Below are positions 13,861 to 55,688 of a stretch of 64,000 bases of DNA, one piece after another. Source of the DNA: a virus; the IMG/VR virus record IMGVR_UViG_3300036861_001052, positions 64,001 to 128,000 of that record; one strand, 5' to 3'. Every line of letters begins with the position of its first letter. Positions within the stretch are counted from its first letter, which is position 1. A model generated the notes under the pieces. That model saw only the letters and a program-made list of their open reading frames with translations, did not search any database and was not told the DNA's origin. The translations under genes and the position numbers were made by a program.

Positions 13861-14394
13861 ATGTACCAGAGCACGGGACTTGGTCGCGGCGGCGGAGGTG
13901 GTGGGCACGGCGGCGGCGGTCATGGCGGGGGAGGCCACGGCGGTGGGGGTCATGGTGGCGGAGGCGGTGCTCGCGCGGGCGGTGGAGGCGGAGCGCGTGT
14001 CAGCGGAGGCGGCGGAGCGCGTCACGGCGGCGGCGGCCATCACGGTGGTCACCACGGCGGACGCGGCCGCGGTCCCACGAACGTTTTCGTGACCGACGGC
14101 GGCTGGGGACCTGGATGGGGCTGGGGGCCCGGCTATGCGGAGACCGTGTACGTCGACTCGTCGTGCGCTGTCGTCGACGACAGCGGCGTCTGTGTTTGTA
14201 AGTCTTTGAATCTCGACGGCAGCTGCGCGCGGCCCATCATCGGCTGGGTCGGCGGTCGCCCGGTCTACGGACTCGGCGCGGACGAAGAGAAGGCATCGGT
14301 CGCGCCCTGGATCGCCGGCGGGATCTTGCTCGCGCTTGCCGTCGGCGCGTACGCCCTCGATAAGAAGGGCCCAGCTCCGCTCCGTAGCTCGTAA
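13861..14394 (+). CDS. Gly/His-rich tail-anchored protein
   Basis: GGGGH repeats, Cys cluster, VYGLGA, C-terminal TM + KK. Confidence 0.75.
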   Translation: MYQSTGLGRGGGGGGHGGGGHGGGGHGGGGHGGGGGARAGGGGGARVSGGGGARHGGGGHHGGHHGGRGRGPTNVFVTDGGWGPGWGWGPGYAETVYVDSSCAVVDDSGVCVCKSLNLDGSCARPIIGWVGGRPVYGLGADEEKASVAPWIAGGILLALAVGAYALDKKGPAPLRSS

Positions 14395-14762: not shown

Positions 14763-15383
14763 GTGCGCTCGCTCCTCCACCATCAACCGGCGACCTTCAC
14801 ACCAGGCTATCCTGGTGCTCTCGGTTGGTATGGCGAGCCGATGGCGGGGACGCTCTCGAGAAATCCCCCGAACACGCTCGCGGGCTTTCAGGGGCACCCC
14901 GACACGCTTCGAGCGATGGTCCGCGCAGCGCACGGACCGCGGGGCGAGCAGAGCATCCTCGTCCGTAGCGTGACCGAGGAAGTGGTCGGGGACCTTCAGC
15001 CGAAGGACTACCTCGGTGAGATCTTGGCGATTCGCTACTGGGTGACCGAGCACATCCGGTACGTGAACGATTCTCTCCACGTCGAGATCGTGAAAGACCC
15101 GCAGCGAGTCATCGAAGAGATCCTCGCGCGCGGCCGCGCGGCGGAGGACTGCGACGGCATCGCTCTCATGATTGCCGTCATGTGCTTGCAGGTCGGACGC
15201 GTGGCGGAGTTCGTGGTGGTGGGCTTCGGCGAGCCGGGGCACTACAGCCACGTCTTCGTGAGAGTGAAGGAGCCACGGAGCGGCCAATGGATCGTGTGCG
15301 ATCCGGTTGCGGGCTCCGACGAGCGCGGCATGCTCGACCGCGTGACGACGTTTTACACGAAGAGCCTAGACGAGGCGGCCTAA
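14763..15383 (+). CDS. Transglutaminase-like (papain-fold) cysteine enzyme; candidate maturation protease
   Basis: WVTEHIRYVND, EDCDG (Cys), YSHVF (His), VCDP (Asp). Confidence 0.85.
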   Translation: MRSLLHHQPATFTPGYPGALGWYGEPMAGTLSRNPPNTLAGFQGHPDTLRAMVRAAHGPRGEQSILVRSVTEEVVGDLQPKDYLGEILAIRYWVTEHIRYVNDSLHVEIVKDPQRVIEEILARGRAAEDCDGIALMIAVMCLQVGRVAEFVVVGFGEPGHYSHVFVRVKEPRSGQWIVCDPVAGSDERGMLDRVTTFYTKSLDEAA

Positions 15384-16515: not shown

Positions 16516-16797
16516 ATGAGAGGCATTGGAGCGTACTCACTAACCACGGCGAGTCATCCAGATCCAACCGGAATGCGGTGCGGAGACGGGAGGACCGCTA
16601 TCAAGGAGTCGAACGGTAGCATCTGGTGCTACTCCGATGCCGAGCTCGCTGCGCTCAGGGCAGCTGGTGCTGGCGTTACGGTGCGCAACGCGACTCCATT
16701 CGAGCGGTTTACCCATTCGCTCACGGAAGTTCCGTGGTGGGTCTATGCAGGCATTGGCGCTGGTGGACTCTGGTTCTTGTTGGGGAGGAAGCACTAA
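16516..16797 (+). CDS. Small tail-anchored protein
   Basis: Starts MRGIGA; ends TM + RKH; visibly more AT-rich. Confidence 0.7.
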   Translation: MRGIGAYSLTTASHPDPTGMRCGDGRTAIKESNGSIWCYSDAELAALRAAGAGVTVRNATPFERFTHSLTEVPWWVYAGIGAGGLWFLLGRKH

Positions 16798-17123
16798 TGG
16801 GCTGCGGTTGCTCGGCGCCTCTCGGTGACTCGATGAACACCTACCAGGGCCCTGTTCCGCCCGGCGTGCCGAATCCGTTCACGCCGATGCTGCACTCGTT
16901 TCCGACGCGCTACCACGGCCCGATCTACACGCGCCCCATGAACCAATTCCCCTGGCGCGAGCGCCCGAACGACTTCGCGCTCGAAGAGGGCATGCAGGGA
17001 CTCGGCGCGGACGACGACAAGGCAATCCCGCCGGCGTGGAAGATGGCCGTCGCCGCGGGCCTCGTGGGCATCACGATCTGGGCCGTCGTCAAATGGGCGG
17101 ACGCCCAGCCAAGGAGGGCGTGA
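16797..17123 (+). CDS. Tail-anchored protein
   Basis: MQGLGADD then TM. Confidence 0.75.
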   Translation: MGCGCSAPLGDSMNTYQGPVPPGVPNPFTPMLHSFPTRYHGPIYTRPMNQFPWRERPNDFALEEGMQGLGADDDKAIPPAWKMAVAAGLVGITIWAVVKWADAQPRRA

Positions 17124-23289: not shown

Positions 23290-24335
23290 CCTACAGCGGG
23301 CTAGGATTCGGCTTCTTCACGGAGCCGTGCGGCATCAACGTGGAAGGCACGGATCATTTCGTGGCCGGCCCGACCTATCAGGCGCTCGAGACCGTGGCGC
23401 AGGACACCGTCACCGTGCTCCTTTCGGGGCACGGCAACGTGCAGCTCTGCGGAAATCTCCTCCCCTACGTGGCTCCGGCTCCAGGAGTAGCGGCCGTCTT
23501 CGGGGCGCACGAGCAAACGGCGCGGCTGATTGCAGCGACCGTGCTCGCTTCGCTCATGGAGCAAGAGAGGAGGAAGGCCCACGGGACTCGAGCCTCGACC
23601 CGCATGCTCGCCGAGAGGCTCGTCCCGGAGATCGTGCAGACGCTGACGCACAACGGAGACCCCGCGGCCTGTCAGATCGAGTTCGAGGCGTCGTTTCGGA
23701 ACTGGTCGGGCCTCTCGGCGCTGAAAGTGCCGACGACGGTCTCGAAGACCGGCTGGTGCGAGAAGAGCCTCGCTCTGCCGTGGGATAGTGCCGGCCACAT
23801 CCGGTCGTGCGAGGCGCAAGCGATCTGCAAATCTGTCATCGGCGCGGGCGGGGCGATCCAGTACGTCACGAGCCCTCCGCCGGCTCCGACCGATCCGCGC
23901 GTGGCCGCGAGCGCGCCCGGGACGACGCCGTCGCCGCCTCCGACGAAAGCGGAGATCGAGGCGGAAGTCCGCCGGAAGATGGTGGCGAGCGGAGAGACCG
24001 TAGCGGACCGAGAGAACAAGCAGGAGTTCACAGAGCTCGCGGCGTACTTGAAGGCGCTCGGAGAGGCGCGGCGCTACCTCACGATGGCGCTCGGGATCCC
24101 GGACAAGTCGACCGACGCGGCCGTAGCCGCGGCGCTCGGTCACGAGGGGATCGCCACGGCAGAGGTGCTCGACTGGTTTTTGGGCTGTAACTTCGAGCCC
24201 GGCTGCTTTCGCGAGCAGATGAATCTCTCGCTCGGCGAGGCGAGGCGCTACTCGAGAGACACGCGCGCGAAGATCGCTGTCGCCGTGGGAGGAGTCCTCG
24301 CCGTGGGATTTCTCCTCTTTAGGTGGAGACGCTGA
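23286..24335 (+). CDS. Tail-anchored protein
   Basis: Starts xTYSGLG; ends TM + RWRR. Confidence 0.8.
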   Translation: MTYSGLGFGFFTEPCGINVEGTDHFVAGPTYQALETVAQDTVTVLLSGHGNVQLCGNLLPYVAPAPGVAAVFGAHEQTARLIAATVLASLMEQERRKAHGTRASTRMLAERLVPEIVQTLTHNGDPAACQIEFEASFRNWSGLSALKVPTTVSKTGWCEKSLALPWDSAGHIRSCEAQAICKSVIGAGGAIQYVTSPPPAPTDPRVAASAPGTTPSPPPTKAEIEAEVRRKMVASGETVADRENKQEFTELAAYLKALGEARRYLTMALGIPDKSTDAAVAAALGHEGIATAEVLDWFLGCNFEPGCFREQMNLSLGEARRYSRDTRAKIAVAVGGVLAVGFLLFRWRR

Positions 24336-24694
24336 TGCCGCCGCCACCACTCTTGAAGGCGCCGAGCTGGGAGCAGGGGCGCCCCGCGCGAAACCTCGCG
24401 TACGTTGCCGTGCTTTTACAGGAAGCACACATCGACCCGAAGAAGATCCCGAAAGGTCAGGTCATCTTTGCGCTGGCAACGCCGTACGAGCAGCGCGGCG
24501 TGACGGGCAGAGACATCGAGCGCTGGGCGCTCGAATGCGATCCGGCTAAAAAGCCCGCCTGGGATCCGGTCGAGTGCTTCCGAAAGAAGGCCCGGGCGGC
24601 GATGGCGCCACGGCCAGGGCTCGGCACCAAGGTCGCGCTCATCGCCGGAGCCTCGTTTGTGGCGGCTTTTGGCCTTGCGCGCTGGCTCCGGTAG
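24335..24694 (+). CDS. Tail-anchored protein
   Basis: C-terminal TM; W.L.C...P..CFR resembles end of previous protein. Confidence 0.7.
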   Translation: MPPPPLLKAPSWEQGRPARNLAYVAVLLQEAHIDPKKIPKGQVIFALATPYEQRGVTGRDIERWALECDPAKKPAWDPVECFRKKARAAMAPRPGLGTKVALIAGASFVAAFGLARWLR

Positions 24695-24722
24695 CCCTTC
24701 CGGCCCGAGGGAAACGCCGGTG

Positions 24723-24751
24723 TTGACGGCGTTTCGGGCAGAGGCTAGTCT
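24723..24751 (+). promoter_or_regulatory. Sigma70-like promoter of core/capsid operon
   Basis: TTGACG-17nt-TAGTCT in intergenic gap. Confidence 0.6.
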
Positions 24752-24815
24752 CAGTTCTTAGTTAGCGGGCGCCTTCCCGACGCCTCGCGACCCCTAGTGG
24801 TTTGCGAGAAGAGTC

Positions 24816-27272
24816 GTGAGAGGCAAGCACAAAGCGTACGGTCGAGCGTTTCCAATCCGGGAAGCGGACGTCGGCTCGTACAAGGTAGCGCGTCACCGTC
24901 CCTATCGAGCGAATCCGATGGGCGTGACGACGCTGTCGAGCGTCAACGGCCCGGGCGCGTATTCCGCGCGTGCGGCCTCGAGTGGGCTTTCCCGCGCCGA
25001 GCGTCTGCGGCGCGCGCGCCGGCTCATGGAGAACCGAAGCATGCAAGGACACAAGGTGCACAGGGCCAAGTTCGTACGGCGCATGAAGGCAAACAGCGGT
25101 CGGATGACCTCGAACGCTGCCCGACGCCGCGCGGGCAAACGCCTCGCTGCGTTTCAGGCAGCTCGGCGTCGTGGGCTTTCGAAGGAAGCGGCGATGCGGA
25201 GCGCGTCCCGGAAGTTTCCGAAGAGTCGCCGGCGTGGCTACCGCCGAAACGAGGGACCGGCTCAGGTCGCTTCCCCCGCCTACCGGTCGGGCCACGAGCG
25301 GATCTACGGGAAAAAGGCTCAGCGAAGGCGCGCCGCCGCGGCAAAGCGGAAAGCGCATCGCGCCGAGGTCGCCGCGCGTAAGCGCGCTCGTAAGGCTGCC
25401 GCTCGCGCGAAGAAGCGCGCAGCGATGACGCCGGAAAAGCGCGCTTCGCTCCGAAAGCGCCGCCGCAGGGCGAGCTTTCCTAAGCAGTACAAGAAGGTGC
25501 GGGGCCGAAGGGGCAAGATGCACCGAGTGCGAGTGGCGTACGGACCGTACCGCCGCGCGCGCCTTTCCGATCCGAGGTCAGGCCGAAAGCGCCTCTCCTA
25601 CACCTATCGAGGCAAACGCGGCAAACGCCGCAAGATTCCGCAGTGGGCCGTTGCCGGAGCAGTCAGTGCGCGCGACTACAAGACGTCGAGCGTGTACGGG
25701 CGCGCCCGGGAGCGGATCGCACGGCGTCGTAAACGTGCTGCCGCTCGCGTAGAGCGCAGCGGAGATGCGTTCGTTCCGAACGCGGGAGCAAGAAAAGTGG
25801 CAAGACGAAGAAAGCGAAAAGGGCACAAGCGTTCCCGCCGGGGACGTCGCAAGGTGAAACGGACGCGCGGTCGCGCGCGGCGCCGATCGGCGGGTCACAC
25901 CGTCCGCAGGCGCAAGAGGCGCAAGTCAGCGAGCCGCCGGACAGCCCGGAAGCACCGTGCGAGCCCGCATCGCCGGAAGAAGCGTCGTGCGCACGCGAAG
26001 AGGCGTTCCACGCGCCGCCGGTCCAAGCGCCGGTCGCACCCGCGTCGGATCGGTCGCCGCAAGGTGAGGCGCCTGAGAAAAGGCATCTACCTGGTCGCGA
26101 ACCGCCGTCGCCGTCGCTCGCGCCGCCGCTACGAGGAAAACCGCAGGGTCCGCCGGCATCGTCGTCGGAAGCTCGCGGCAAATCCGCGTCGCAGGCGTCG
26201 CTCGCGGCGTCACGTCGCAAACCGCAGGCGCCGAACGCATCGGCGTCGGAGCTACCGTCGTAACCGGAGCTACCGCCGTAACGGCTTCATGGGCGACTTG
26301 AAGACGCTCGCGAAGATGGGCTTCCTGGTCCTCGGCGGCTTCTTCCTCCACAAGGGGATCACGGGCGGAATCATTCGGGCGCTGACGTCTACGGACGCCT
26401 CGACCGGAGCGATGACGTTCGCCTCGCTGCCGATGATCGGAGCCGACGGCAAACCGACGGTTCTCGCGACTTGGCAGAAGCCGCTCGTCGGAGGCCTGTT
26501 CGGCGGTCTCGGCATCTTCGGGATCTCCAAGCTCCCGATGAAGTCGGACACCCGGAATGCGCTGTCAGCGGGCGTGGTGACGTCGTTCCTTCAGAGCCTC
26601 GTCCACACGATCCTGACTGTCGCAAACCAGCCGGAGGTCCTCTCCTATCTCGAGGGTTACCAGAACAGCGCAGCGTACTCGCTCCGCGGTACCCGAGGGA
26701 AACGGCGCCGTCACCCGATGCGAGGCCTCGGCGTCGCACGGAACGCGACGTCGATCATGCCGCACTACGCACCTGTCGGACAGTTCCAGCAGGCCGCAGC
26801 CGGCATGGGCGAGTACTTCGCGGCTCAGAGCGGCATGGGTGAGTACTTCGCGGGTCCCGGCGTCGAAGGCGTCGGTCACTACGAGAAGGCTGGCCCCTTG
26901 GCGCTTCAGCCCTCGACGAGCCGGATGGGTAACCTTCCGATCGACGACGGCATTCGCCCCGACTCGAACCTCGACCACGTGATGGATCTCGCGGAAAGCG
27001 CGGCCGGTCTCGGCCAAGGTTTCCGTCAGGCCGCCGCGGGAGTCGGGGCGGGCCCGGGTTACCGGCAGGCAGCTGCCGGTATGGGCGAGTACTTCTCGGC
27101 TGCCCCGCAAGACGGCGGCTACAAGGAGTTCTCGGTCCCGACGCAGTCGCAGTGGATCCCCTCGGGGCCCCTCTGGGCCGGCACGATGAGTGCCGACGCT
27201 GCGTACACGGAGAGCGAGCTCCCGGCTGGGATCCTCCAGGGTCCTGGCGGAAACGGAGTGCTCTCGGGCTGA
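24816..27272 (+). CDS. Protamine-like Arg/Lys-rich membrane polyprotein; candidate DNA-condensing core protein
   Basis: About 490 aa of R/K-rich sequence, hydrophobic segments, MRGLG, three GMGEYF repeats. Confidence 0.8.
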   Translation: MRGKHKAYGRAFPIREADVGSYKVARHRPYRANPMGVTTLSSVNGPGAYSARAASSGLSRAERLRRARRLMENRSMQGHKVHRAKFVRRMKANSGRMTSNAARRRAGKRLAAFQAARRRGLSKEAAMRSASRKFPKSRRRGYRRNEGPAQVASPAYRSGHERIYGKKAQRRRAAAAKRKAHRAEVAARKRARKAAARAKKRAAMTPEKRASLRKRRRRASFPKQYKKVRGRRGKMHRVRVAYGPYRRARLSDPRSGRKRLSYTYRGKRGKRRKIPQWAVAGAVSARDYKTSSVYGRARERIARRRKRAAARVERSGDAFVPNAGARKVARRRKRKGHKRSRRGRRKVKRTRGRARRRSAGHTVRRRKRRKSASRRTARKHRASPHRRKKRRAHAKRRSTRRRSKRRSHPRRIGRRKVRRLRKGIYLVANRRRRRSRRRYEENRRVRRHRRRKLAANPRRRRRSRRHVANRRRRTHRRRSYRRNRSYRRNGFMGDLKTLAKMGFLVLGGFFLHKGITGGIIRALTSTDASTGAMTFASLPMIGADGKPTVLATWQKPLVGGLFGGLGIFGISKLPMKSDTRNALSAGVVTSFLQSLVHTILTVANQPEVLSYLEGYQNSAAYSLRGTRGKRRRHPMRGLGVARNATSIMPHYAPVGQFQQAAAGMGEYFAAQSGMGEYFAGPGVEGVGHYEKAGPLALQPSTSRMGNLPIDDGIRPDSNLDHVMDLAESAAGLGQGFRQAAAGVGAGPGYRQAAAGMGEYFSAAPQDGGYKEFSVPTQSQWIPSGPLWAGTMSADAAYTESELPAGILQGPGGNGVLSG

Positions 27273-27447
27273 GCTGTAGCGCTTAACACCGCCGGCCCCG
27301 GTAGGACGAGCGCGCCTCACCGCTCTCGAGCCCCGGGGCAGCGGTGTCAGAACCGACCGGCGGAAAAGCCCCGAAAGGGGCCGGGACGACACCCGACCAA
27401 AACGGATCTTCCGGTCACCCACCCGTTTCCAAAGGAAACATACCAAC

Positions 27448-27483
27448 ATGGCAAAACTGACGAACGTCAGAGAGCGTGTGCAT
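27448..27483 (+). CDS. Putative major capsid protein, exon 1
   Basis: AAAGGAAA RBS; MAKLTNVRERVH, ends in T at the predicted 5' splice site. Confidence 0.8.
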
Positions 27484-28260
27484 CACGCGGACGTTCGGTG
27501 AAAGCGAAAGCTGGTGCCCCTCGGCGGTAACGCCGGGGTGATAACTGGGTGAATCAAACCGTTTCGTGATGAGAATGAGAACTTCAGACACAGACATCGC
27601 CTGGCTTGCTGGAATCGTGGACGGCGAGGGCTGCTTCTCCGTGAAGCGTCCCATCGTTCGCAAGACCTACAAGAAGGGGCGAGTGACGAGCTACCAAGTG
27701 TGGCTGGTCGTCTGTAATACGTCCGAGCCGATGGTACGTCGGGTCACGGAGATCTTCGGATCTCTCGGGATCGGGCACCAGCCGGTGAGGCGCGTCTGGA
27801 AGGGAAAGAAGGCAACTCGGTGGCAGTACTGGGTGCACGTCGCGCGAAAGCACGAGCTCTTGCGTCTGACGGAACTCCTCCTGCCTTTCCTCGTGGCCAA
27901 AAAAGACGAGGCCGAGATCGTGCGCTGGTTCCTATCGAGGGCTTGCAGCACGAGGCAATACGTTCCCACTCTTCTCGATCGTACCGCGCTCGAAGCGATG
28001 GCCACGATCAAGCGACACGGCGGGGAAGCCCCTGCTGAGGTGCGAGAGCTCCTTCGCGAGGTAATCCCGAGCCAAGCCGTTTCTGGGATCCGTGCGGCCC
28101 ACGGATTGGAGACGGAAGGCGTAGAGACTAGGTCGGTGACTCCCAAGAATAACCCGACCCACGAGTGCCCGGCGCCCCTCCACTTGGTGGGGTGATGAGA
28201 TAGCCCGACACTCCGGGAAACCGGAGAGCCCGCATAAACAGCGGGCATGACAGAAGCAAG
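27484..28260 (+). ncRNA. Group I self-splicing intron (777 nt)
   Basis: U before 5' site and terminal G; IGS GCTGGTGC (27510-27517) pairs with GCAT (exon 1) and CAGC (exon 2); core-like AATCCCGAGCCAAGC, GTAGAGACTA, GAGATAGCCCGA; GNRA hairpins for P2 and P9. Confidence 0.9.
27566..28195 (+). CDS. Intron-encoded LAGLIDADG homing endonuclease (single motif)
   Basis: IAWLAGIVDGEGCFS...VCNTS...LLPFLVAKK. Confidence 0.92.
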   Translation: MMRMRTSDTDIAWLAGIVDGEGCFSVKRPIVRKTYKKGRVTSYQVWLVVCNTSEPMVRRVTEIFGSLGIGHQPVRRVWKGKKATRWQYWVHVARKHELLRLTELLLPFLVAKKDEAEIVRWFLSRACSTRQYVPTLLDRTALEAMATIKRHGGEAPAEVRELLREVIPSQAVSGIRAAHGLETEGVETRSVTPKNNPTHECPAPLHLVG

Positions 28261-29028
28261 CAGCCGTTTTACGACACGCTCATCCGAACCTCCGGTCTCG
28301 GCGGTTCCATCCCCAAGGTGAATCAGCGGACCTCGCTGTTCACGAACCAGGCTCGCCAGGACGACATCAACGCCCTGACGAACCTGCCGAACGGTTCGAC
28401 GCTCCCGTCCGACCAGAGCCACGTGACGCTCGCGCTTCGCGTGTTCATCTGGTTCCGCAATCCGCAGATCCGCGCAAGCGGCTTTGCGAACGGTGCGATC
28501 AAGAACAACGGCGACTTCTCCCAAGCGGGAGCGGCGGCGTTCTTCTCGCAAGGCGGAGTCGACCCGAACGGCGCGACCGCGGGCCCCGGCGCCTTCAACT
28601 ACCCGGGCTCGATCGAGGACGTCTACCGCCTGTACTGGCAGTCGGAAGAGCAGCTTCACTGGAGCTACGGCACCGGTGACAAGTTCTCGATCACGAACAT
28701 GCCGACGAAGTACTTCCCGGACGGCGGTGGCCTCTGGGGTGACCTCGGTGGCTCTTCGGATCTCATCCACTTCAACAACGGCACGCCGGACCACACGGCA
28801 ATTCTCCGGCTCGCGCGCGCGATCCTTCTGCCTCCCCGGCAGAACATCAAGTGCGCCGCCGAGATCGTGCCCTTGCCCGACGGTGGAAACGCCCAGATCG
28901 CTGGATCGACCGTGACCGGCAACGGCCGGAACATGCTGTCGCTCCAGGACAACCTGAACGCGACCGACGGGATCAACAAGGTGATTCAGTTCACCTTCGA
29001 CGGTCTCTTCGCCCGCGACGTTCAGTAG
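28261..29028 (+). CDS. Putative major capsid protein, exon 2 (candidate single jelly-roll; 267 aa spliced)
   Basis: In-frame join gives RERVH/QPFYDTLIR; beta-rich; structured leader and 3' hairpin. Capsid role is inference. Confidence 0.65.
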   Translation, partial: QPFYDTLIRTSGLGGSIPKVNQRTSLFTNQARQDDINALTNLPNGSTLPSDQSHVTLALRVFIWFRNPQIRASGFANGAIKNNGDFSQAGAAAFFSQGGVDPNGATAGPGAFNYPGSIEDVYRLYWQSEEQLHWSYGTGDKFSITNMPTKYFPDGGGLWGDLGGSSDLIHFNNGTPDHTAILRLARAILLPPRQNIKCAAEIVPLPDGGNAQIAGSTVTGNGRNMLSLQDNLNATDGINKVIQFTFDGLFARDVQ

Positions 29029-29139: not shown

Positions 29140-30132
29140 ATGGCAAGTTGGGAACAGGTCATTCGAGACCTGCAGAACACGGCAGGCTTTGCCGCCGCAA
29201 AGGCGAAGGAAGCGATCGACAAGGCAGGCCGAAACGAGAGCGCCCTCGCGCTCGTCCGGCAAGAGCTCGAACGCGAGCAGCGCTCCATGCAAGCGCTCGC
29301 CGACGCGCTCGAAAAGGTCCAGGGCCGCGGCGCGGGCTACGGTAACGGTAACGTCGGCGTCGACGAGCGCGTGCGCTACATCGAGTCGATCCCGGGTCGC
29401 AGGATCCCGTTCGACTTCGTCGTGACGATTCCTATTTCTTCGAACTCGGTCTCGCAGGTCCAGGGCACGAAGACCGTGAGCCAGGACGGGCCGTTCGTGG
29501 CGGTTGCGCGCTACGCGGCGTTTCAGTCCGCGTTCCAGTTTCAACGGGTAGACCCCGTCACGCAGGAGAAGGCGGTCTTTCAAGGACGCTCCTTCGGCCG
29601 TTTTCGTCCGATGCACTCCATGTGGGACCTGAACGATGCCTCGACCGGCGTCTTTCAGCCGACGACCGGCATCGCTCAGCCGGGCACGGGCGCGCCGATC
29701 GTGGCGGCTCCCTCGAACATGTCGTCCTTCCGCACGATGGAAGGCGACTTCATCATCCAGATGCTGAATCAAGGCGCTGGCTACCCTCGCGACAATCAGG
29801 ACGGCGGCATTCCGAGCGCCTGGTACTCCGAGAGCATCAACAGCCCCTTCCAGCTCGGAGCCTTGGACTTCTTCGAGCGCGGCGAGACGATCCAGTGGAA
29901 GGTCACGCCGACGCACGTCAATAACCCGCCGGCAGGTAACCTTTCGGGTTACGCTGCGGGTGGCGTGTTCCCGTTCCTCGCGAGCCAGTACGACGTGCAC
30001 GAGGGCATCAACGACCAGCTCGATCCCGAGGCAACGAGCGATCCCATCACGAGGCTCCCCGACGGGATCTTGTGGATAGGGATGCACGGGATCAAGATCG
30101 TGCAGCCCCCCGGGCCGGTGAGGCTCACCTAA
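29140..30132 (+). CDS. N-terminal coiled coil plus beta-sandwich; candidate second capsid protein
   Basis: GGAGG RBS; PFDFVVTIPI, QDGPFVAV, DFIIQM, ETIQWKVT, LWIGMHGIKI strands. Confidence 0.6.
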   Translation: MASWEQVIRDLQNTAGFAAAKAKEAIDKAGRNESALALVRQELEREQRSMQALADALEKVQGRGAGYGNGNVGVDERVRYIESIPGRRIPFDFVVTIPISSNSVSQVQGTKTVSQDGPFVAVARYAAFQSAFQFQRVDPVTQEKAVFQGRSFGRFRPMHSMWDLNDASTGVFQPTTGIAQPGTGAPIVAAPSNMSSFRTMEGDFIIQMLNQGAGYPRDNQDGGIPSAWYSESINSPFQLGALDFFERGETIQWKVTPTHVNNPPAGNLSGYAAGGVFPFLASQYDVHEGINDQLDPEATSDPITRLPDGILWIGMHGIKIVQPPGPVRLT

Positions 30133-34834: not shown

Positions 34835-35350
34835 ATGATGAGCGGACTAGGAGCAATGCGGCAAGAGAGCCCGGACGTGGCGCGGCTCAGGCACGCGCTC
34901 ACGGCATGGGCGGCGAGCCCGAACGACCGCGCGGCGATCAACGGACTCTACGGCGCCGCGTGGATCTGGACGGCGAAAGTCAGGCCGCGGTTTACGGCGC
35001 TCGACAATGCGCTCGCTTCCGCTCTCGCCCAGTGGGGTAAGAGCCCGAGCGACGTCTCGAGCCAGCGCCTGGTGAGCGCGGCGGCCGCGCGGTGGATGGC
35101 GGGCGTGCACGCGCTCGGTGAATACTTTTCGGGCACTGGCGAATACTTCGCGGCTCAGGGCATGGGAGAGTACTTCTCTGGAACGGGCGAGTACTTCTCG
35201 GGTGCGGACGGGCTCGGAGCGGACATCGCCATGGTCTGCTCCGAAGAGTGCATGAAGTACGTCAAGGCCGACAAGAAGCGCCTCATGCTCATGACGGGAT
35301 CCATCGCGCTCGGCCTCGGGCTCTTCGCGGGCATGGTCGTCTTTCGGTGA
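34835..35350 (+). CDS. Tail-anchored protein with four GEYF repeats
   Basis: MMSGLGA; LGEYFSGTGEYFAAQGMGEYFSGTGEYFSG; DGLGAD; TM. Confidence 0.8.
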   Translation: MMSGLGAMRQESPDVARLRHALTAWAASPNDRAAINGLYGAAWIWTAKVRPRFTALDNALASALAQWGKSPSDVSSQRLVSAAAARWMAGVHALGEYFSGTGEYFAAQGMGEYFSGTGEYFSGADGLGADIAMVCSEECMKYVKADKKRLMLMTGSIALGLGLFAGMVVFR

Positions 35351-38170: not shown

Positions 38171-40927
<2,757 letters not shown>

Positions 40928-40978
40928 GAATAGCAAGAGAAACGCTTTCTCGTAGAGGCCTCGGCGCGGGGGCTGTAG

Positions 40979-42457
<1,479 letters not shown>

Positions 42458-51369: not shown

Positions 51370-51852
51370 ATGGCAGACGTACAAAAGGTCGTTGCGGCTC
51401 GCATTCAGGCGACGTCGCTTTCCGCCGTCCAGCAACCGAGCCTCCAGCCCCAGGGCCCGCGCTTCGGTAACATCATCGCCGAGGAGTCTAGCGAGCTCCC
51501 CCCGAACGAGATCCGGACCGTCCTCTGGGACAATGGCCTGGTGGACGACGTGGACGCCGACAGCGTCGCGGCGCTCAATCTCGATGTCATCGAAAATCCA
51601 GCGGCCGACGTCATTTCGACCTTCGAGGGACAGGTCGTCCTTCGTATTGCGCCAGAGGGCGCCGTGCCGGGCGACGCGGCAGGCGGCACGAGCCGGGAGT
51701 TTTCCGGGCTCGTCCTCGCCATCTACAAGCGAACTCCGATCGAAGCGGAGGCGGGAAGCGGCGACGACTTCCTCCTCGTGCTCAATTCGTCGGGCACTTA
51801 CTTCGAGGACCTCGCCGGATCTTTCACGGTGCTCCGAAACCAGACGCCCTAA
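51370..51852 (+). CDS. Beta-rich hypothetical protein, paralogue of 50911
   Basis: Same motif order. Confidence 0.75.
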   Translation: MADVQKVVAARIQATSLSAVQQPSLQPQGPRFGNIIAEESSELPPNEIRTVLWDNGLVDDVDADSVAALNLDVIENPAADVISTFEGQVVLRIAPEGAVPGDAAGGTSREFSGLVLAIYKRTPIEAEAGSGDDFLLVLNSSGTYFEDLAGSFTVLRNQTP

Positions 51853-54800
51853 AACGGCGCTGTCATCGCCGTCATCATGCGGAGCGGGCTCGGCATGACC
51901 TCGCTCGCGCTCCGGATGGGGCGGAGCCCTGCCTCGAAGGCGTTCCGGGTGAGGAGGCGCCTCGGTGGGGCGTTCGGCAGGAGCTCTTCGTCCTCGTCCT
52001 CGCCGCCGACGGAGAAGTAGGTCTGGGGCGCTTTGGGCGCCTCGAGCACGGCTCTTCGTGGGCCCCCCTCCCGCGAGACGACCACGGTCGGCCGGCGCCG
52101 CATGACCTGAATATTGCCGCTCTCGACGGCAGATCGAGCGATGGCCTCGGTGACGTCCGGGCTCGGGAGGGCAATTTCTGCCCGGACGGAATCCTGGACG
52201 AGCCCTGCCTCGAGCACTTCGGCCGCTCCTGCCTCGTCGAGGCCCTCCTCGACGGCGATCCGGCGGAGGTCGTCCTCGCGGAGATCTTCGCTACTCCGGA
52301 GGATCCTGCGGGAGGCCTGCCGGAAGCCCGCCAGGTAGCGGAGGCGCGCCTTTTGTCCCGAGAGGCCGAGCTCGGCGGCGAGCCGCTTCTCGACTACCTC
52401 GGGGCAGGGAACGATCCAGGCGATGTAGGAGAGCATGACCGAGTAGAGAAGGCTGTACTCACTCGAGCGCTCGCCGCCGCGCAGGACGGGGATCCCATGG
52501 CGCCGGACGTGCTCCCACATGCCGCGCGCCGCCCTCCGCATCACGCACTCCGAGTCCCGCCCGTCGTAGCGGCGCCCGAACTCCTCTCGGAACGCCGCCG
52601 TGTGCACGATGGTCCGCTTCTTCGTGTCGATCCGGAAGGAGTCCTTGTCGAAGAGCGTGCTCCGGAGAATGTTGGCGTCGACGAGCTCGACACTAGCCGA
52701 TGGAAACGCCGCACGCAGGAGCGCCTCGATGCGGGCGTCGAGGGGCCTCGGGAGAGACGGCCGCTCCACCTTCGGATCGCCGACGCCGAGTGCGGCGAGC
52801 CTTTCCGTGATGAGCTTGAGGGTCTCGCGCTCCCGCTCGGCCTCGTCTTTTTCTTTGGCGCGCGACGCCTTCCGGAGCGACTCGACGCTCTCGTAGTAGC
52901 CCTTGAGGAGCTCGCGGGCTTCGCTGACTTGGATCTTCATCGCCTCCTCGGCGAAGCCGACTTCGGCGGAGCGCTCTTTCTCGCGCGCCACCGACAGATC
53001 CTGCCCCGTGATGGATCCGATCCATTTCAGAAACCAGGAAAACTCCTCCGGACTCTTGTCGTAGATGTCGCGCACGGGATCATCTGCGAGAAACCAATCC
53101 GGGAGCTCTTCGGCCGGGCTCACGCCGACGAGAGAGGCCTCGGCAAACTTCTCCATGAAGGCCGTCCACTCTTCGTCGTCCCGCTCGCTCCCACGCGGCC
53201 GCTCGATGTGCTCGAACGCCCGCACCGTCGTCGTGTAGCGCTCGGCGTTCTGCTCGAGCCAGCGGGCGAGGTAGTCGTCGTCGTGGGCGCGGATGTCTTT
53301 ACCGACCCGCGCTTCCGCATCGAACGGCACGAACCGAAACTTCCCCTTCGTGCCGCGGGATAGGCCCCGCTGGATCTCCTGGAACGCTCCCCACCACCGG
53401 TCGAGCCCGAAGGCTTTCGTCGGCGAGGTCTTCATCCACTCGGCGCGAAGAGCCTCGACTTTGGCAAACAGCGTGGGCGCTTTGATCTCCGAATAGAGCT
53501 GCTCGCCCGCGAAGACCGGCAAGGGGGGCACCGTGACCGTCTTCGTCTTCCCCTCCTTGTCCCGTACGGTGACCGTGACTTCTCCGTGCTTGGAGGCAGA
53601 GCCGCGCGCAAACCACGGAAGGAGCGAGAGCTCGCCGAGGCCGTAGCTCAAGGGCCACGGGTCGTAGTGCTCGCCGAGCCAGTGGTCTGCCTGCACCATG
53701 TCCTTGCCACGGCGCTCGTAGAGCGCGACCGTGCCAGGGCTCTTTCCCTGGCGGGGCTCGACGCGGGTGAAGTGGATCTTTTCTCGCGCTTCGTCGCGGT
53801 GCGAGCCCGGTGGGGCGCCGATGTCCGCGTACGCGTAGAAGGGGGAGCCGCGGGAGATGTCCTTCTTCGGCGGCGCGGGCGGCTCCTCGTCCTCGGCGAT
53901 CGCGACGAGGCCTCCCTCTGTCGCGGGCTCGGGCCCCATCTTCGGCGACTCGGCGACGAGAGTCGGATCGGCCTCTTCCCTGGCTTGGACGCCGTAGGTC
54001 TCGATGACTCGCGCGGGGGGAGGCACGGCCGGCGGCGTCCCGGCAGCCGCCCCGCCGGCAATGTACTCGAGGATCTCGTTTTGGCCGGACAGCACATCGA
54101 GCTCGCGTTCGTCTTCGATGTAGCCCTCGGTCACGACCACGCTCGAGTGACCGAGGATGCTCTGGATCTCCCGGATGGGTTTCCCCCGCTTCGACATCGC
54201 CGTCGCGGCGAAGTGCCGGAAGGCGTGGCTGTAGACGAGGCGGCTCTCCTCTGCCGAGAGGCCCGCTTTCTCGGCGATGCGCTTTAGAAGCGCCCGGAGA
54301 CACCACCTCGACATGGGCCGGCTGTGAGCGGGCCGCACGTTGGGTTTCATCTCCTGATACTGCGAGGGGGAGTTCGCTCCCCAGAAAGCGACCGGAGGAA
54401 AGAGCGGCGCGTCGGTCTCTTCGGAGAGCGCCCGGTAGCGCCAGGCTGCGCCCCCGCGCGGGACGTAGAGCTGCCCCTTCGGATCCTCGGACTGAGCGCC
54501 GGGGGGCGCCGCGCGCGCCGCGAGGGCCGACTGAAAGTCGTAGAGCGATCGGAGCGCGTACGGCGGGTAGGGAAGCCTGTGATGGACGCCGCCCTTCCGG
54601 ACGAGCTCGACCATGACGGGAGCTGTGCGCGGCTCGAGCCAGCCGGGCGTCCTCTCGAGCTCGGTCGCCTTCGGCTTCTCGCGAGTGAGCCGGCGGGCCT
54701 CGGTGGCTCGGACTCCCGTGAGGACCAGAAACCAGAAGATGGCGGCGTCGCGCTTTTCGACGAGCGAAGGCCCGCCGGTCGCGGCGAGGAGGCGCTCGAC

Positions 54801-55688
54801 TATCGCCGGGGTGAGCCTGGGGCGCCGTGCGCGCGCGGCGCGCTTGTCGGCAGAGAGGCCGCGGGAGACTCGCGCCGAGATCTCGTCGAAGACGTTCGTG
54901 CGAACGAGGGGCTCTACGTCCACGTCGGCGCGGGCGAGCTCGGTCCATAGGCGGGAGAGAGCCGCGAGCCGGAGCGCAATCGCCGAGCGTCCGAGCGGCC
55001 GCGGCACGGGCAGGCTGTAGATGAAGATGTCTTCGAGCGGGACTTCTTTCGTGCCGCCGCCGTCGCGCGGCACGGTCACGGTAAAGACGTCGATGCCGAT
55101 CTGGGAGTTCTCCTTACGGAGCTCGGAGAGGGTCGGCGACCGGACGAGGAGATCGTGGAGCACCATGCGGCCGAGCTCGCTCGCGAGCCAGGTCCGGAGG
55201 CCGACGCCGCCCTCGTGGGCGCGCGCGAGCCCCGCCGGAAGGCCGGCGAGGATGCTCTCGAGATCGGCCGAGCCGAGAGACTTCACTAGATCGTAGAGCG
55301 CCAGCCGCTCGGGCTGGTCACCGTCCCTGAGGCGCTCTCCCTCGAGCGTGAAGGATTTGGTCGCGAGCCACTCGACGTAGTCCTCGGCGTCCTTCCGGCT
55401 CACCTCCCGCGGCAGGACCACCCGGCGCTTGACCGTTGCGCTCCACTCGAAAAATTCCGCGATGGCGCGGCCGTACTCCTCCCTGGTCCGGGGTGAGTAC
55501 CTGCCCACATAGGAGCTGTAGCGGCCGCCCGGCGCGTCGGGGCCGGCGATGCGGCTCAAGATCTCCGCGTACCTCTCGGTGACCTTGCGGCTCCCCTCGC
55601 CAAAGGCCTCGGTCCACCGCTCGAGAGCCTCCGGGGTGCGCTTGCCCCTCGCGAGCGCAAGCTCCGGACGGTTCCGACCGAGCATCAC
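51849..55688 (-). CDS. Giant tyrosine recombinase/integrase (1279 aa)
   Basis: RDAAIFWFLVLTGVRATE, VRKGG, HAFRHFAAT, IQSILGHSSVVVTEGY: full R-K-H-R-H-Y set; long C-terminal extension. Confidence 0.92.
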   Translation of the reverse strand: MMLGRNRPELALARGKRTPEALERWTEAFGEGSRKVTERYAEILSRIAGPDAPGGRYSSYVGRYSPRTREEYGRAIAEFFEWSATVKRRVVLPREVSRKDAEDYVEWLATKSFTLEGERLRDGDQPERLALYDLVKSLGSADLESILAGLPAGLARAHEGGVGLRTWLASELGRMVLHDLLVRSPTLSELRKENSQIGIDVFTVTVPRDGGGTKEVPLEDIFIYSLPVPRPLGRSAIALRLAALSRLWTELARADVDVEPLVRTNVFDEISARVSRGLSADKRAARARRPRLTPAIVERLLAATGGPSLVEKRDAAIFWFLVLTGVRATEARRLTREKPKATELERTPGWLEPRTAPVMVELVRKGGVHHRLPYPPYALRSLYDFQSALAARAAPPGAQSEDPKGQLYVPRGGAAWRYRALSEETDAPLFPPVAFWGANSPSQYQEMKPNVRPAHSRPMSRWCLRALLKRIAEKAGLSAEESRLVYSHAFRHFAATAMSKRGKPIREIQSILGHSSVVVTEGYIEDERELDVLSGQNEILEYIAGGAAAGTPPAVPPPARVIETYGVQAREEADPTLVAESPKMGPEPATEGGLVAIAEDEEPPAPPKKDISRGSPFYAYADIGAPPGSHRDEAREKIHFTRVEPRQGKSPGTVALYERRGKDMVQADHWLGEHYDPWPLSYGLGELSLLPWFARGSASKHGEVTVTVRDKEGKTKTVTVPPLPVFAGEQLYSEIKAPTLFAKVEALRAEWMKTSPTKAFGLDRWWGAFQEIQRGLSRGTKGKFRFVPFDAEARVGKDIRAHDDDYLARWLEQNAERYTTTVRAFEHIERPRGSERDDEEWTAFMEKFAEASLVGVSPAEELPDWFLADDPVRDIYDKSPEEFSWFLKWIGSITGQDLSVAREKERSAEVGFAEEAMKIQVSEARELLKGYYESVESLRKASRAKEKDEAERERETLKLITERLAALGVGDPKVERPSLPRPLDARIEALLRAAFPSASVELVDANILRSTLFDKDSFRIDTKKRTIVHTAAFREEFGRRYDGRDSECVMRRAARGMWEHVRRHGIPVLRGGERSSEYSLLYSVMLSYIAWIVPCPEVVEKRLAAELGLSGQKARLRYLAGFRQASRRILRSSEDLREDDLRRIAVEEGLDEAGAAEVLEAGLVQDSVRAEIALPSPDVTEAIARSAVESGNIQVMRRRPTVVVSREGGPRRAVLEAPKAPQTYFSVGGEDEDEELLPNAPPRRLLTRNAFEAGLRPIRSASEVMPSPLRMMTAMTAPF

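Follow-up and report, generated by a model that had tools for sequence, protein, structure and literature searches.

What does the gene at 24816-27272 encode, and what part might its product play in the virus? The window analysed here is the stretch of 64,000 nucleotides from base 64001 to base 128000 of one record of 138,414 bp from an uncultured soil virus (IMG/VR IMGVR_UViG_3300036861_001052), which carries a 127-bp direct terminal repeat and is rated complete. The gene lies on the plus strand as a single open reading frame (ORF) with a GTG start and a stop codon at 27270-27272. It encodes a protein of 818 residues in three parts: a polycationic arm (residues 1-489), three hydrophobic, glycine-rich helices, and an acidic tail rich in glycine and alanine. 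The gene is real, and the tripartite layout described in an earlier note on this DNA, made from the sequence alone, is confirmed. We predict that the product is a virion core protein whose arm would compact the DNA, whose helices would lie in an inner lipid or hydrophobic layer, whose tail would dock or be trimmed, and which would be a precursor cut at Asn489 and at the ends of short modules. We consider this reading somewhat probable.

The arginine-rich half is translated: differences from relatives are concentrated at third codon positions, and all ten related loci compared have the gene as a single ORF. Over the 472 codons of the basic half aligned with the orthologue at locus L001, differences number 98, 90 and 208 at codon positions 1, 2 and 3 (152 synonymous and 106 amino-acid-changing codon differences). 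The C-terminal half shows the same pattern (59, 43 and 119), as do three further relatives. Of 15 sub-windows of the gene, 13 have their highest GC content at third codon positions; the exceptions are the two around 25566-25866. The open frame spans 571-905 residues in the ten loci (the shortest is truncated by a contig end), and a conserved N-terminal block opens it in nine, the tenth losing the block at a contig end. L013, a duplicate of L012, was excluded from this count and from the comparison of the capsid protein 1 gene below. The earlier note had allowed that the basic half might not be translated and that the true start might lie near 26289. The basic half would then be an untranslated or wrong-frame artefact of GC-rich DNA. 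DNA of 65% GC often yields arginine-rich reading frames, and short forms of about 300 residues exist among the database relatives. Such an artefact would nevertheless have to produce the third-position excess within the basic half itself, keep motif islands there down to about 25-30% identity, and leave one ORF with a conserved N-terminus at 10 of 10 loci. The ATG at 26289 has no Shine-Dalgarno-like sequence at working distance. We regard the artefact as very improbable.

An exhaustive HMMER search with the protein retrieved 185 cluster representatives at E<=1e-3, of which 62 were at E<=1e-30. The same three-part build is found in 92 of the 150 relatives listed, all of at least 550 residues. 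The 91-member alignment (A4) on which the family counts below are based consists of the window protein and 90 of these 150; left out were the 58 relatives shorter than 550 residues, along with P0121 and P0128, whose first hydrophobic stretch is close to the N-terminus. L002, whose first ATG is too far upstream, is not included in alignment A6. Median net charge in the 91 members is +136 for the N-terminal part and -11 for the tail. Relatives sit on IMG/VR contigs of 62-140 kb (five of them of 116-140 kb) and on a few contigs of metagenome-assembled genomes (MAGs), and the ten homologues that were looked up are all metagenomic and either unnamed or annotated as hypothetical protein. Four matches fall on genome contigs: two on MAG contigs labelled Pirellulales, one on a contig labelled Pseudomonadales, and a weak match of 61 residues in Zobellella (binning labels are weak evidence). 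A Pfam-A scan of the protein at E<=0.1 returned no family, so membership in the adenovirus pVII/pX family is not indicated. PHROGs likewise returned no family, the 91-member profile had no match among PDB sequences at E<=1, and literature searches found no paper on this virus lineage or on a protamine-like phage protein.

The polycationic arm (24816-26282) contains 31% arginine and 9% lysine (31% and 9.4% over residues 1-490) and carries a net charge of +182, in agreement with the stretch of about 490 residues of extreme Arg/Lys content that was first noticed. Its asparagines mostly stand three positions after Tyr, Phe, Leu or Met ([YFLM]xxN). This holds for 11 of the 13 asparagines of residues 1-489, where 1.2 would be expected (300 shuffles), the remaining two occurring in SSVN and HVAN. 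In the basic halves of the 91 members the motif accounts for 638 of 1212 asparagines (113 expected), and Met, Phe and Tyr are enriched 6-8 fold at position -3. No such excess exists in the tails of the same proteins (105 vs 86 expected). The punctuation of the basic half by this motif is thus a property of the family as well as of the window protein.

Individual sites are also conserved. An N-terminal motif block (residues 8-50, 24837-24965), made up of YGRAF..., Y-R-x-N-P-M-G-V-T and V-N-G-x-G-A-Y, is conserved in the alignments. Within it, Asn33 (Y-R-x-N-P) is kept in 64 of 91 members and Asn44 in 71. Asn322 (A-F-x-P-N) is kept in 78, with Phe at -3 in 67. The Asn489 codon (26280-26282), at the junction between the arm and the first helix (Y-R-R-N, followed by G-F), is invariant in all 91 members. 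The residue at -3 of Asn489 is Tyr in 43, Phe in 23 and Met in 17 (83 of 91 together), and that at +1 is Gly in 29, Ala in 16, Gln in 12, Asp in 9 and Ser in 7. Directly before this junction lie five arginine-rich modules of 6-14 residues (residues 430-489, 26103-26282). Four of them close with [YFLM]-x-x-Asn and the other with H-V-A-N, and an 18-bp tandem duplication (26247-26282) gave rise to the last two modules. At least one and up to ten such short, motif-ended modules precede the first helix in 75 of the 91 homologues. A recurrent and conserved site motif at module boundaries, as expected of a precursor, is therefore found at all three levels: the invariant junction, the family-wide asparagine count and the module arrays.

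The acidic tail (residues 641-818, 26736-27269) has a net charge of -9, G-[LMV]-G motifs and a conserved C-terminal end. GMGEYF occurs three times (residues 663-668, 673-678 and 755-760; 26802-26819, 26832-26849 and 27078-27095), and MRGLG (635-639), EGVG (683-686), AGLG (730-733) and AGVG (741-744) are all present as first listed. Residues 605-818 contain seven G[LMIVT]G motifs where 1.1 are expected, and the tails of the 91 members contain 493 (115 expected), with no excess in the basic halves (30 vs 34 expected). The extended form of the motif is (Q/E)-A-A-A-G-[VLM]-G-E-Y-F. Both motif classes are thus real and conserved, one restricted to the basic half of the chain and the other to the tail. 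Among the 157 ORFs of at least 80 residues in the genome, the 818-residue protein is the top outlier for both (z 5.7 and 6.6). Four tandem G-x-G-E-Y-F repeats also occur in the cytoplasmic part of a C-tail-anchored protein of 171 residues (34835-35350, + strand), which has four G[LMIV]G motifs (0.5 expected) and G-L-G at residues 4-6.

We modelled the protein with AlphaFold2 (AF2) using a 91-row alignment, which gave a mean predicted local distance difference test score (pLDDT) of 64. From about residue 100 to 315 the pLDDT is mostly >90, and the model shows a sheet of five strands at 225-273 together with long helices rich in Ala, Arg and Lys. Within this modelled part of the arm, good conservation is limited to the sheet and the helix that follows it (residues 241-322); the long helices at 161-220 fall in gap-rich alignment columns. 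The best conserved portion of the arm is an alpha/beta island (residues 225-322, 25488-25781; pLDDT 83-95), with its five strands, helices to residue 315 and the terminal A-F-x-P-N. Residues 320-488 are disordered in the model, as is most of the tail (pLDDT mostly <50, apart from a helix at 719-729 and a hairpin at 760-773). A Foldseek search with the full-length model against the PDB and BFVD gave nothing at E<=0.001; weak Cren7 rows stood at probability 0.08. VIA-align, in a wide search and a second look, gave only matches of Z <7 on the three-helix part, and the ESM Atlas only unnamed viral clusters (scores 0.85 and 0.91). These fold searches were run with the full-length model, not with the basic arm alone.

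Hydrophobic helices had been noticed after the basic half, and the model contains three of them, at pLDDT 85-93. Helix 1 (residues 490-524, 26283-26387) has a short hydrophobic core with a conserved Gly508 and His512-Lys/Arg; helix 2 (549-572, 26460-26531) is glycine-rich and the most membrane-like segment; helix 3 (577-602, 26544-26621) carries a conserved G-A-G-M-V-x-S...Q. The longest uncharged runs have family medians of 12, 19 and 22 residues for helices 1, 2 and 3, and the best 19-residue hydropathies have medians of 1.34, 1.75 and 1.58 (from a Kyte-Doolittle window, not a trained predictor). Helices 2 and 3 thus have the run of at least about 19 uncharged residues, conserved across the 91 members, that marks integral membrane segments. 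With a loop of about nine residues between them they look like a membrane hairpin, and helix 1, with its conserved His-Lys/Arg in mid-helix, may lie at the membrane interface. The helices could instead lie outside any membrane, forming an oligomeric helical hub of a soluble core or scaffold protein in a protein-only particle. Moderate hydropathy would suit such a hub, and soluble three-helix bundles match the three-helix region no worse than three-span membrane proteins do (all at Z <7). The uncharged runs of helices 2 and 3 argue against it, as do the clear C-terminal anchors of several neighbouring module proteins, and we think a soluble hub improbable.

On which side of a membrane would the two arms lie? 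The earlier note proposed that the two motif classes are compartment-specific and lie on opposite sides. In a fuller form of this idea all three helices would span the membrane, with the arm and the DNA on one side, the G-x-G/GEYF tail reaching the capsid on the other, and enzymes specific to each compartment. The three confidently modelled helices are compatible with it, as are the strong charge asymmetry (+182 vs -9), the confinement of each motif to one half, and a loop between helices 1 and 2 that is nearly uncharged and variable in length. Several features oppose it. The uncharged run of helix 1 has a median length of just 12 residues, and a conserved His-Lys/Arg sits midway along the helix. 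Seven Arg/Lys residues lie within 36 residues after helix 3 in the window protein, including a basic cluster (residues 624-639, 26685-26732) that ends in M-R-G-L-G. The GEYF repeats of the 34835-35350 protein are cytoplasmic. The capsid candidates have no signal peptide (judged by eye), so capsid, arm and tail would all be made in the cytoplasm. The placement of the two motifs on opposite sides is thus not supported, and we consider the spanning arrangement rather unlikely. An arm of +182 is itself unlikely to cross a membrane. Given the positive residues after helix 3 and the cytoplasmic repeats of the tail-anchored neighbour, both arms probably face the same, cytoplasmic-leaflet side.

In the core protein that we favour, the basic arm would bind the viral DNA non-specifically, neutralising and compacting it, and the three helices would embed the protein in an inner layer of the particle that is made of lipid or is otherwise hydrophobic. 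The acidic tail, with its (Q/E)-A-A-A-G-[VLM]-G-E-Y-F motifs, would dock on other virion proteins or be trimmed. The protein would be a precursor in which Asn489 marks where the arm is detached, and the [YFLM]-x-x-Asn sites perhaps mark where it is divided into short basic peptides. The sequence data establish the composition, its conservation, the motif statistics, the gene order and the translation of the basic half; that the protein binds DNA, is part of the virion, enters a membrane and is cleaved is inferred from them. A rough charge count gives about 277,000 negative charges for 138,414 bp, half of which some 760 copies would neutralise, a copy number that is plausible for a particle of such a genome size.

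A number of observations weigh against this core-protein reading. Hydropathies of 1.3-1.75 are moderate and make membrane insertion of the helices uncertain, and the positive cluster after helix 3 is limited to close relatives (the family median is two Arg/Lys). Neither Pfam, PHROGs, the PDB nor the searches with the full-length model link the arm to the fold or family of any known DNA-binding domain. Tandem duplication and the common descent of the 91 sequences account for part of the [YFLM]xxN excess. The remaining proteome has no excess of either motif ([YFLM]xxN 126 vs 123 and G-x-G 64 vs 57), in a count that is insensitive to single cleavage sites; the motifs are therefore a property of the 818-residue protein (with one or two neighbours for G-x-G), and a proteome-wide code is not shown. 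About 25-30 of the 150 relatives listed are forms of about 300 residues with the C-terminal part only, so there may be a nested or separate short product. A search of sequencing runs listed seven soil DNA runs and no RNA run. Finally, family searches of the genome found no protease with a specificity matching the motifs, and the sole protease-like candidate, described next, scores below its Pfam cut-off and could equally be a cross-linking enzyme.

Which enzyme might cut such a precursor? Over the complete 138,414-bp genome, profiles for adenain (PF00770) and Ulp1 (PF02902) had no match at E<=10. The C13, C14, Trypsin_2, S78 and ClpP profiles also had no match, so a legumain, caspase, trypsin-like, S78 or ClpP protease is not recognisable at the level of Pfam. 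The candidate is a transglutaminase-like Cys-His-Asp protein (14763-15383, + strand; PF01841, E 1.3e-4, 22.6 bits against a cut-off of 23). It has Cys, His and Asp in the expected order, is a conserved member of the virion module, and retains 65% identity over 174 residues in the distant relative L014; it could be the maturation protease.

The protein may alternatively stay intact, with [YFLM]-x-x-Asn as a DNA-contact or packing unit and G-x-G-E-Y-F as a linear motif that binds the capsid lattice or sub-capsomer proteins. The lack of a matching protease fits this. The GEYF repeats are shared with a second membrane protein, as would be expected if both bound one partner, and the predicted disorder of the tail is usual for regions that carry linear motifs. 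In favour of a precursor, the invariant Asn489 falls precisely on a boundary between domains and small residues come after it, the short modules resemble the site grammar of proteases, and capsid protein 1 has G-L-G close to its N-terminus, as other proteins of the module have it ahead of their anchors. We regard an intact protein as a possibility to be kept in mind, less probable than a core-protein precursor. Some non-enveloped animal viruses release peptides by cleavage after Asn. By analogy, the protein might deliver DNA as a pilot protein: cleavage at Asn489 would free a peptide that acts on membranes and opens the host envelope, and the arm would accompany the DNA. The invariant Asn does stand directly before an amphipathic, hydrophobic helix. 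The size and charge of the arm are better suited to bulk coating of DNA, and nothing observed bears on entry; this role appears doubtful.

How does the favoured core protein compare with known systems? In 3C-like and caspase-type proteases, sites have a hydrophobic residue at P4, Gln or Asp at P1 and a small residue at P1', and Asn-dependent self-cleavage is known in capsid proteins. The Asn489 site follows the first grammar in having a hydrophobic residue three before the Asn and then Gly, Ala or Ser. Asn at P1 with a hydrophobic P4 matches no protease family found in the genome, and self-cleavage of the capsid type needs a folded context, whereas most of the Asn sites here lack a fold in the AF2 model. 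Adenovirus pVII and pre-mu (pX) are arginine-rich core proteins matured by the adenovirus cysteine protease. Like the 818-residue protein as we picture it, they are arginine-rich virion proteins that compact double-stranded DNA and are made as precursors cut at glycine-containing motifs, and M-R-G-L-G fits the adenoviral (M/I/L)-x-G-x-G pattern. Composition and motifs of this kind are present in the window protein; binding, virion location and cleavage are putative. The differences are that the window protein has no sequence relation to them (no Pfam family), that the genome has no adenain/Ulp1 homologue, and that the host is bacterial. The adenoviral core proteins are also small, soluble and without an anchor, and the Asn-based motif has no counterpart in them.

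Ascovirus P64 is a large cationic virion protein (64 kDa, pI 12.2) with a basic domain that, as described, condenses a double-stranded DNA genome of 100-200 kb (PMC6163548). The resemblance, drawn from that description, lies in the unusually large size of a cationic protein; the condensing domain of P64 is C-terminal and the virus infects insects, whereas the basic part here is N-terminal, and the abstract on P64 mentions no membrane anchor, acidic repeat tail or Asn-punctuated modules (PMC6163548). Nearest to the particle plan pictured for the present virus is Sulfolobus polyhedral virus 1 (SPV1, Portogloboviridae). Its shell is built of two jelly-roll proteins, sub-capsomer proteins bridge the space from the shell to the membrane, and under the lipid layer the DNA is not naked but forms a nucleoprotein core with the viral protein VP1 (PMC8459092). 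SPV1 is archaeal, has a genome of 20 kb and uses separate small proteins, where here one chain would combine coat, anchor and spacer (PMC8459092). None of the adenovirus, ascovirus and SPV1 systems joins coat, anchor and tail in one chain. For the proposed function the nearest analogues are adenovirus pVII/pre-mu and next ascovirus P64. Polycationic virion proteins that condense DNA are a known kind of protein; the literature searches found no paper on a membrane-anchored, Asn-punctuated and tripartite version in a bacterial virus.

The genes around 24816-27272 suggest what sort of particle might contain such a protein. In each of the 11 related loci the gene immediately precedes the module's two most conserved genes, which are the likely capsid genes. 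A homologue of 28318-29028 follows immediately in 11 of 11 (57-93% identity), and a homologue of 29140-30132 comes next in ten (46-78% identity), the eleventh contig ending first. The position just upstream of a putative capsid gene, pointed out earlier, is accordingly shared by all of them. Likely capsid protein 1 is encoded at 27448-29028 (+ strand) in two exons, the first of 12 codons (27448-27483) and the second at 28261-29028. The 777-nt insert between them (27484-28260) holds a LAGLIDADG-type ORF (27566-28195). All relatives have an uninterrupted gene whose product joins the two exon products exactly. The match to the Rfam group I intron model is weak (E 0.049; 18.4 bits, where the gathering score is 50). 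Within 28261-28340 and its counterparts in relatives, capsid protein 1 reads G-[LM]-G-G at residues 24-27 (numbered after splicing) in eight of ten aligned sequences, and G-L-S-A and G-L-E-S in the others. G-L-G was also noted immediately ahead of the membrane anchor in several proteins of the module, such as those at 24323-24694 and 16626-17123.

Likely capsid protein 2 (29140-30132, + strand; 330 residues) has an N-terminal helix of about 60 residues, a glycine-rich linker and a beta-rich body; the helix and the linker (G-R-G-A-G-Y-G) recall a removable assembly domain. At E<=1e-5 it has 583 relatives, all of them unnamed and lacking any Pfam domain. The AF2 model (pLDDT 59) has jelly-roll capsid proteins as its best fold matches, none of them significant; the weak matches include EhV-201 (Z 6.7, root-mean-square deviation 8.1, 136 residues aligned), poliovirus VP1 (E 0.017) and SPV1 (6oj0_Z, E 0.036). 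A complex prediction of capsid proteins 1 and 2 with tail residues 641-818, run without controls, scored 0.00, which speaks neither for nor against binding.

Several proteins of the module end in a hydrophobic anchor followed by basic residues. The best 25 of 35 Pfam families found over 149 ORFs include peptidoglycan enzymes, DnaB, chaperonins, glycosyltransferases and collagen repeats, with no terminase, portal, HK97 capsid or tail family among them. A targeted Terminase_6N search gave no match, and targeted FtsK/A32 searches gave matches at the level of the Walker A motif only, which lie upstream of the window in the DnaB gene and beside it. The absence of these hallmark families suggests a large bacterial virus that looks tailless, probably contains a membrane and encodes no packaging motor that could be recognised.

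Adenoviruses, baculoviruses, ascoviruses and some archaeal viruses characteristically carry genomes condensed by protein. To our knowledge, cultured bacterial viruses with double-stranded DNA pump naked DNA into preformed shells. An arm of +136 to +182 joined to a predicted membrane anchor beside capsid genes, in a genome in which no packaging ATPase was found, points to a different assembly of the phage particle. We tentatively propose that a widespread lineage of bacterial viruses of about 116-140 kb packs its DNA without a motor. A membrane-anchored polyprotein would condense the genome on the cytoplasmic face, an Asn-specific activity would detach the arm at Asn489 and cut it into protamine-like peptides of 6-14 residues, and the GEYF tail would recruit the capsid lattice. 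This scheme in full is speculative, and we think it more apt to fail than to hold. If true, it would mean nucleoprotein-first assembly in bacterial viruses, a route that we know of only from eukaryotic and archaeal viruses. A whole virus lineage would be concerned, since the family is abundant in metagenomes (as the 583 relatives of capsid protein 2 indicate). The invariant Asn junction and the two separated motif classes provide precise predictions for mass spectrometry.

The earlier note also placed a good promoter before the gene, and this stands in part. A promoter-like element at 24723-24751 (+ strand) consists of TTGACG (24723-24728), a spacer of 17 nt and TAGTCT (24746-24751), followed by a conserved leader up to the GTG; TTGAC and TAGnnT are invariant in the upstream regions of six of six aligned relatives. 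A scan of 24300-28400 with a sigma-70-like consensus called no sites, the element itself included. Since TTGAC-N17-19-TAGnnT occurs three times in the genome against 0.9 in shuffles, we rejected it as a general late-promoter motif. The region 24694-24815 is strongly conserved among relatives, and its nearly invariant leader has a short G-C-rich inverted repeat after TTGAC...TAGnnT.

Further genes were noted elsewhere in the window. Two large collagen-repeat proteins (918 and 488 residues) are encoded within 38171-42457 and match phage tail-fibre PHROGs via their collagen repeats. A protein of 1279 residues on the minus strand (51849-55688) has a tyrosine-integrase-like region (PHROG 1, E 3e-19). 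An ORF of 177 residues at 13861-14394 combines a long Gly/His-rich run of G-G-G-G-H repeats with a Cys-rich part and a C-terminal anchor.

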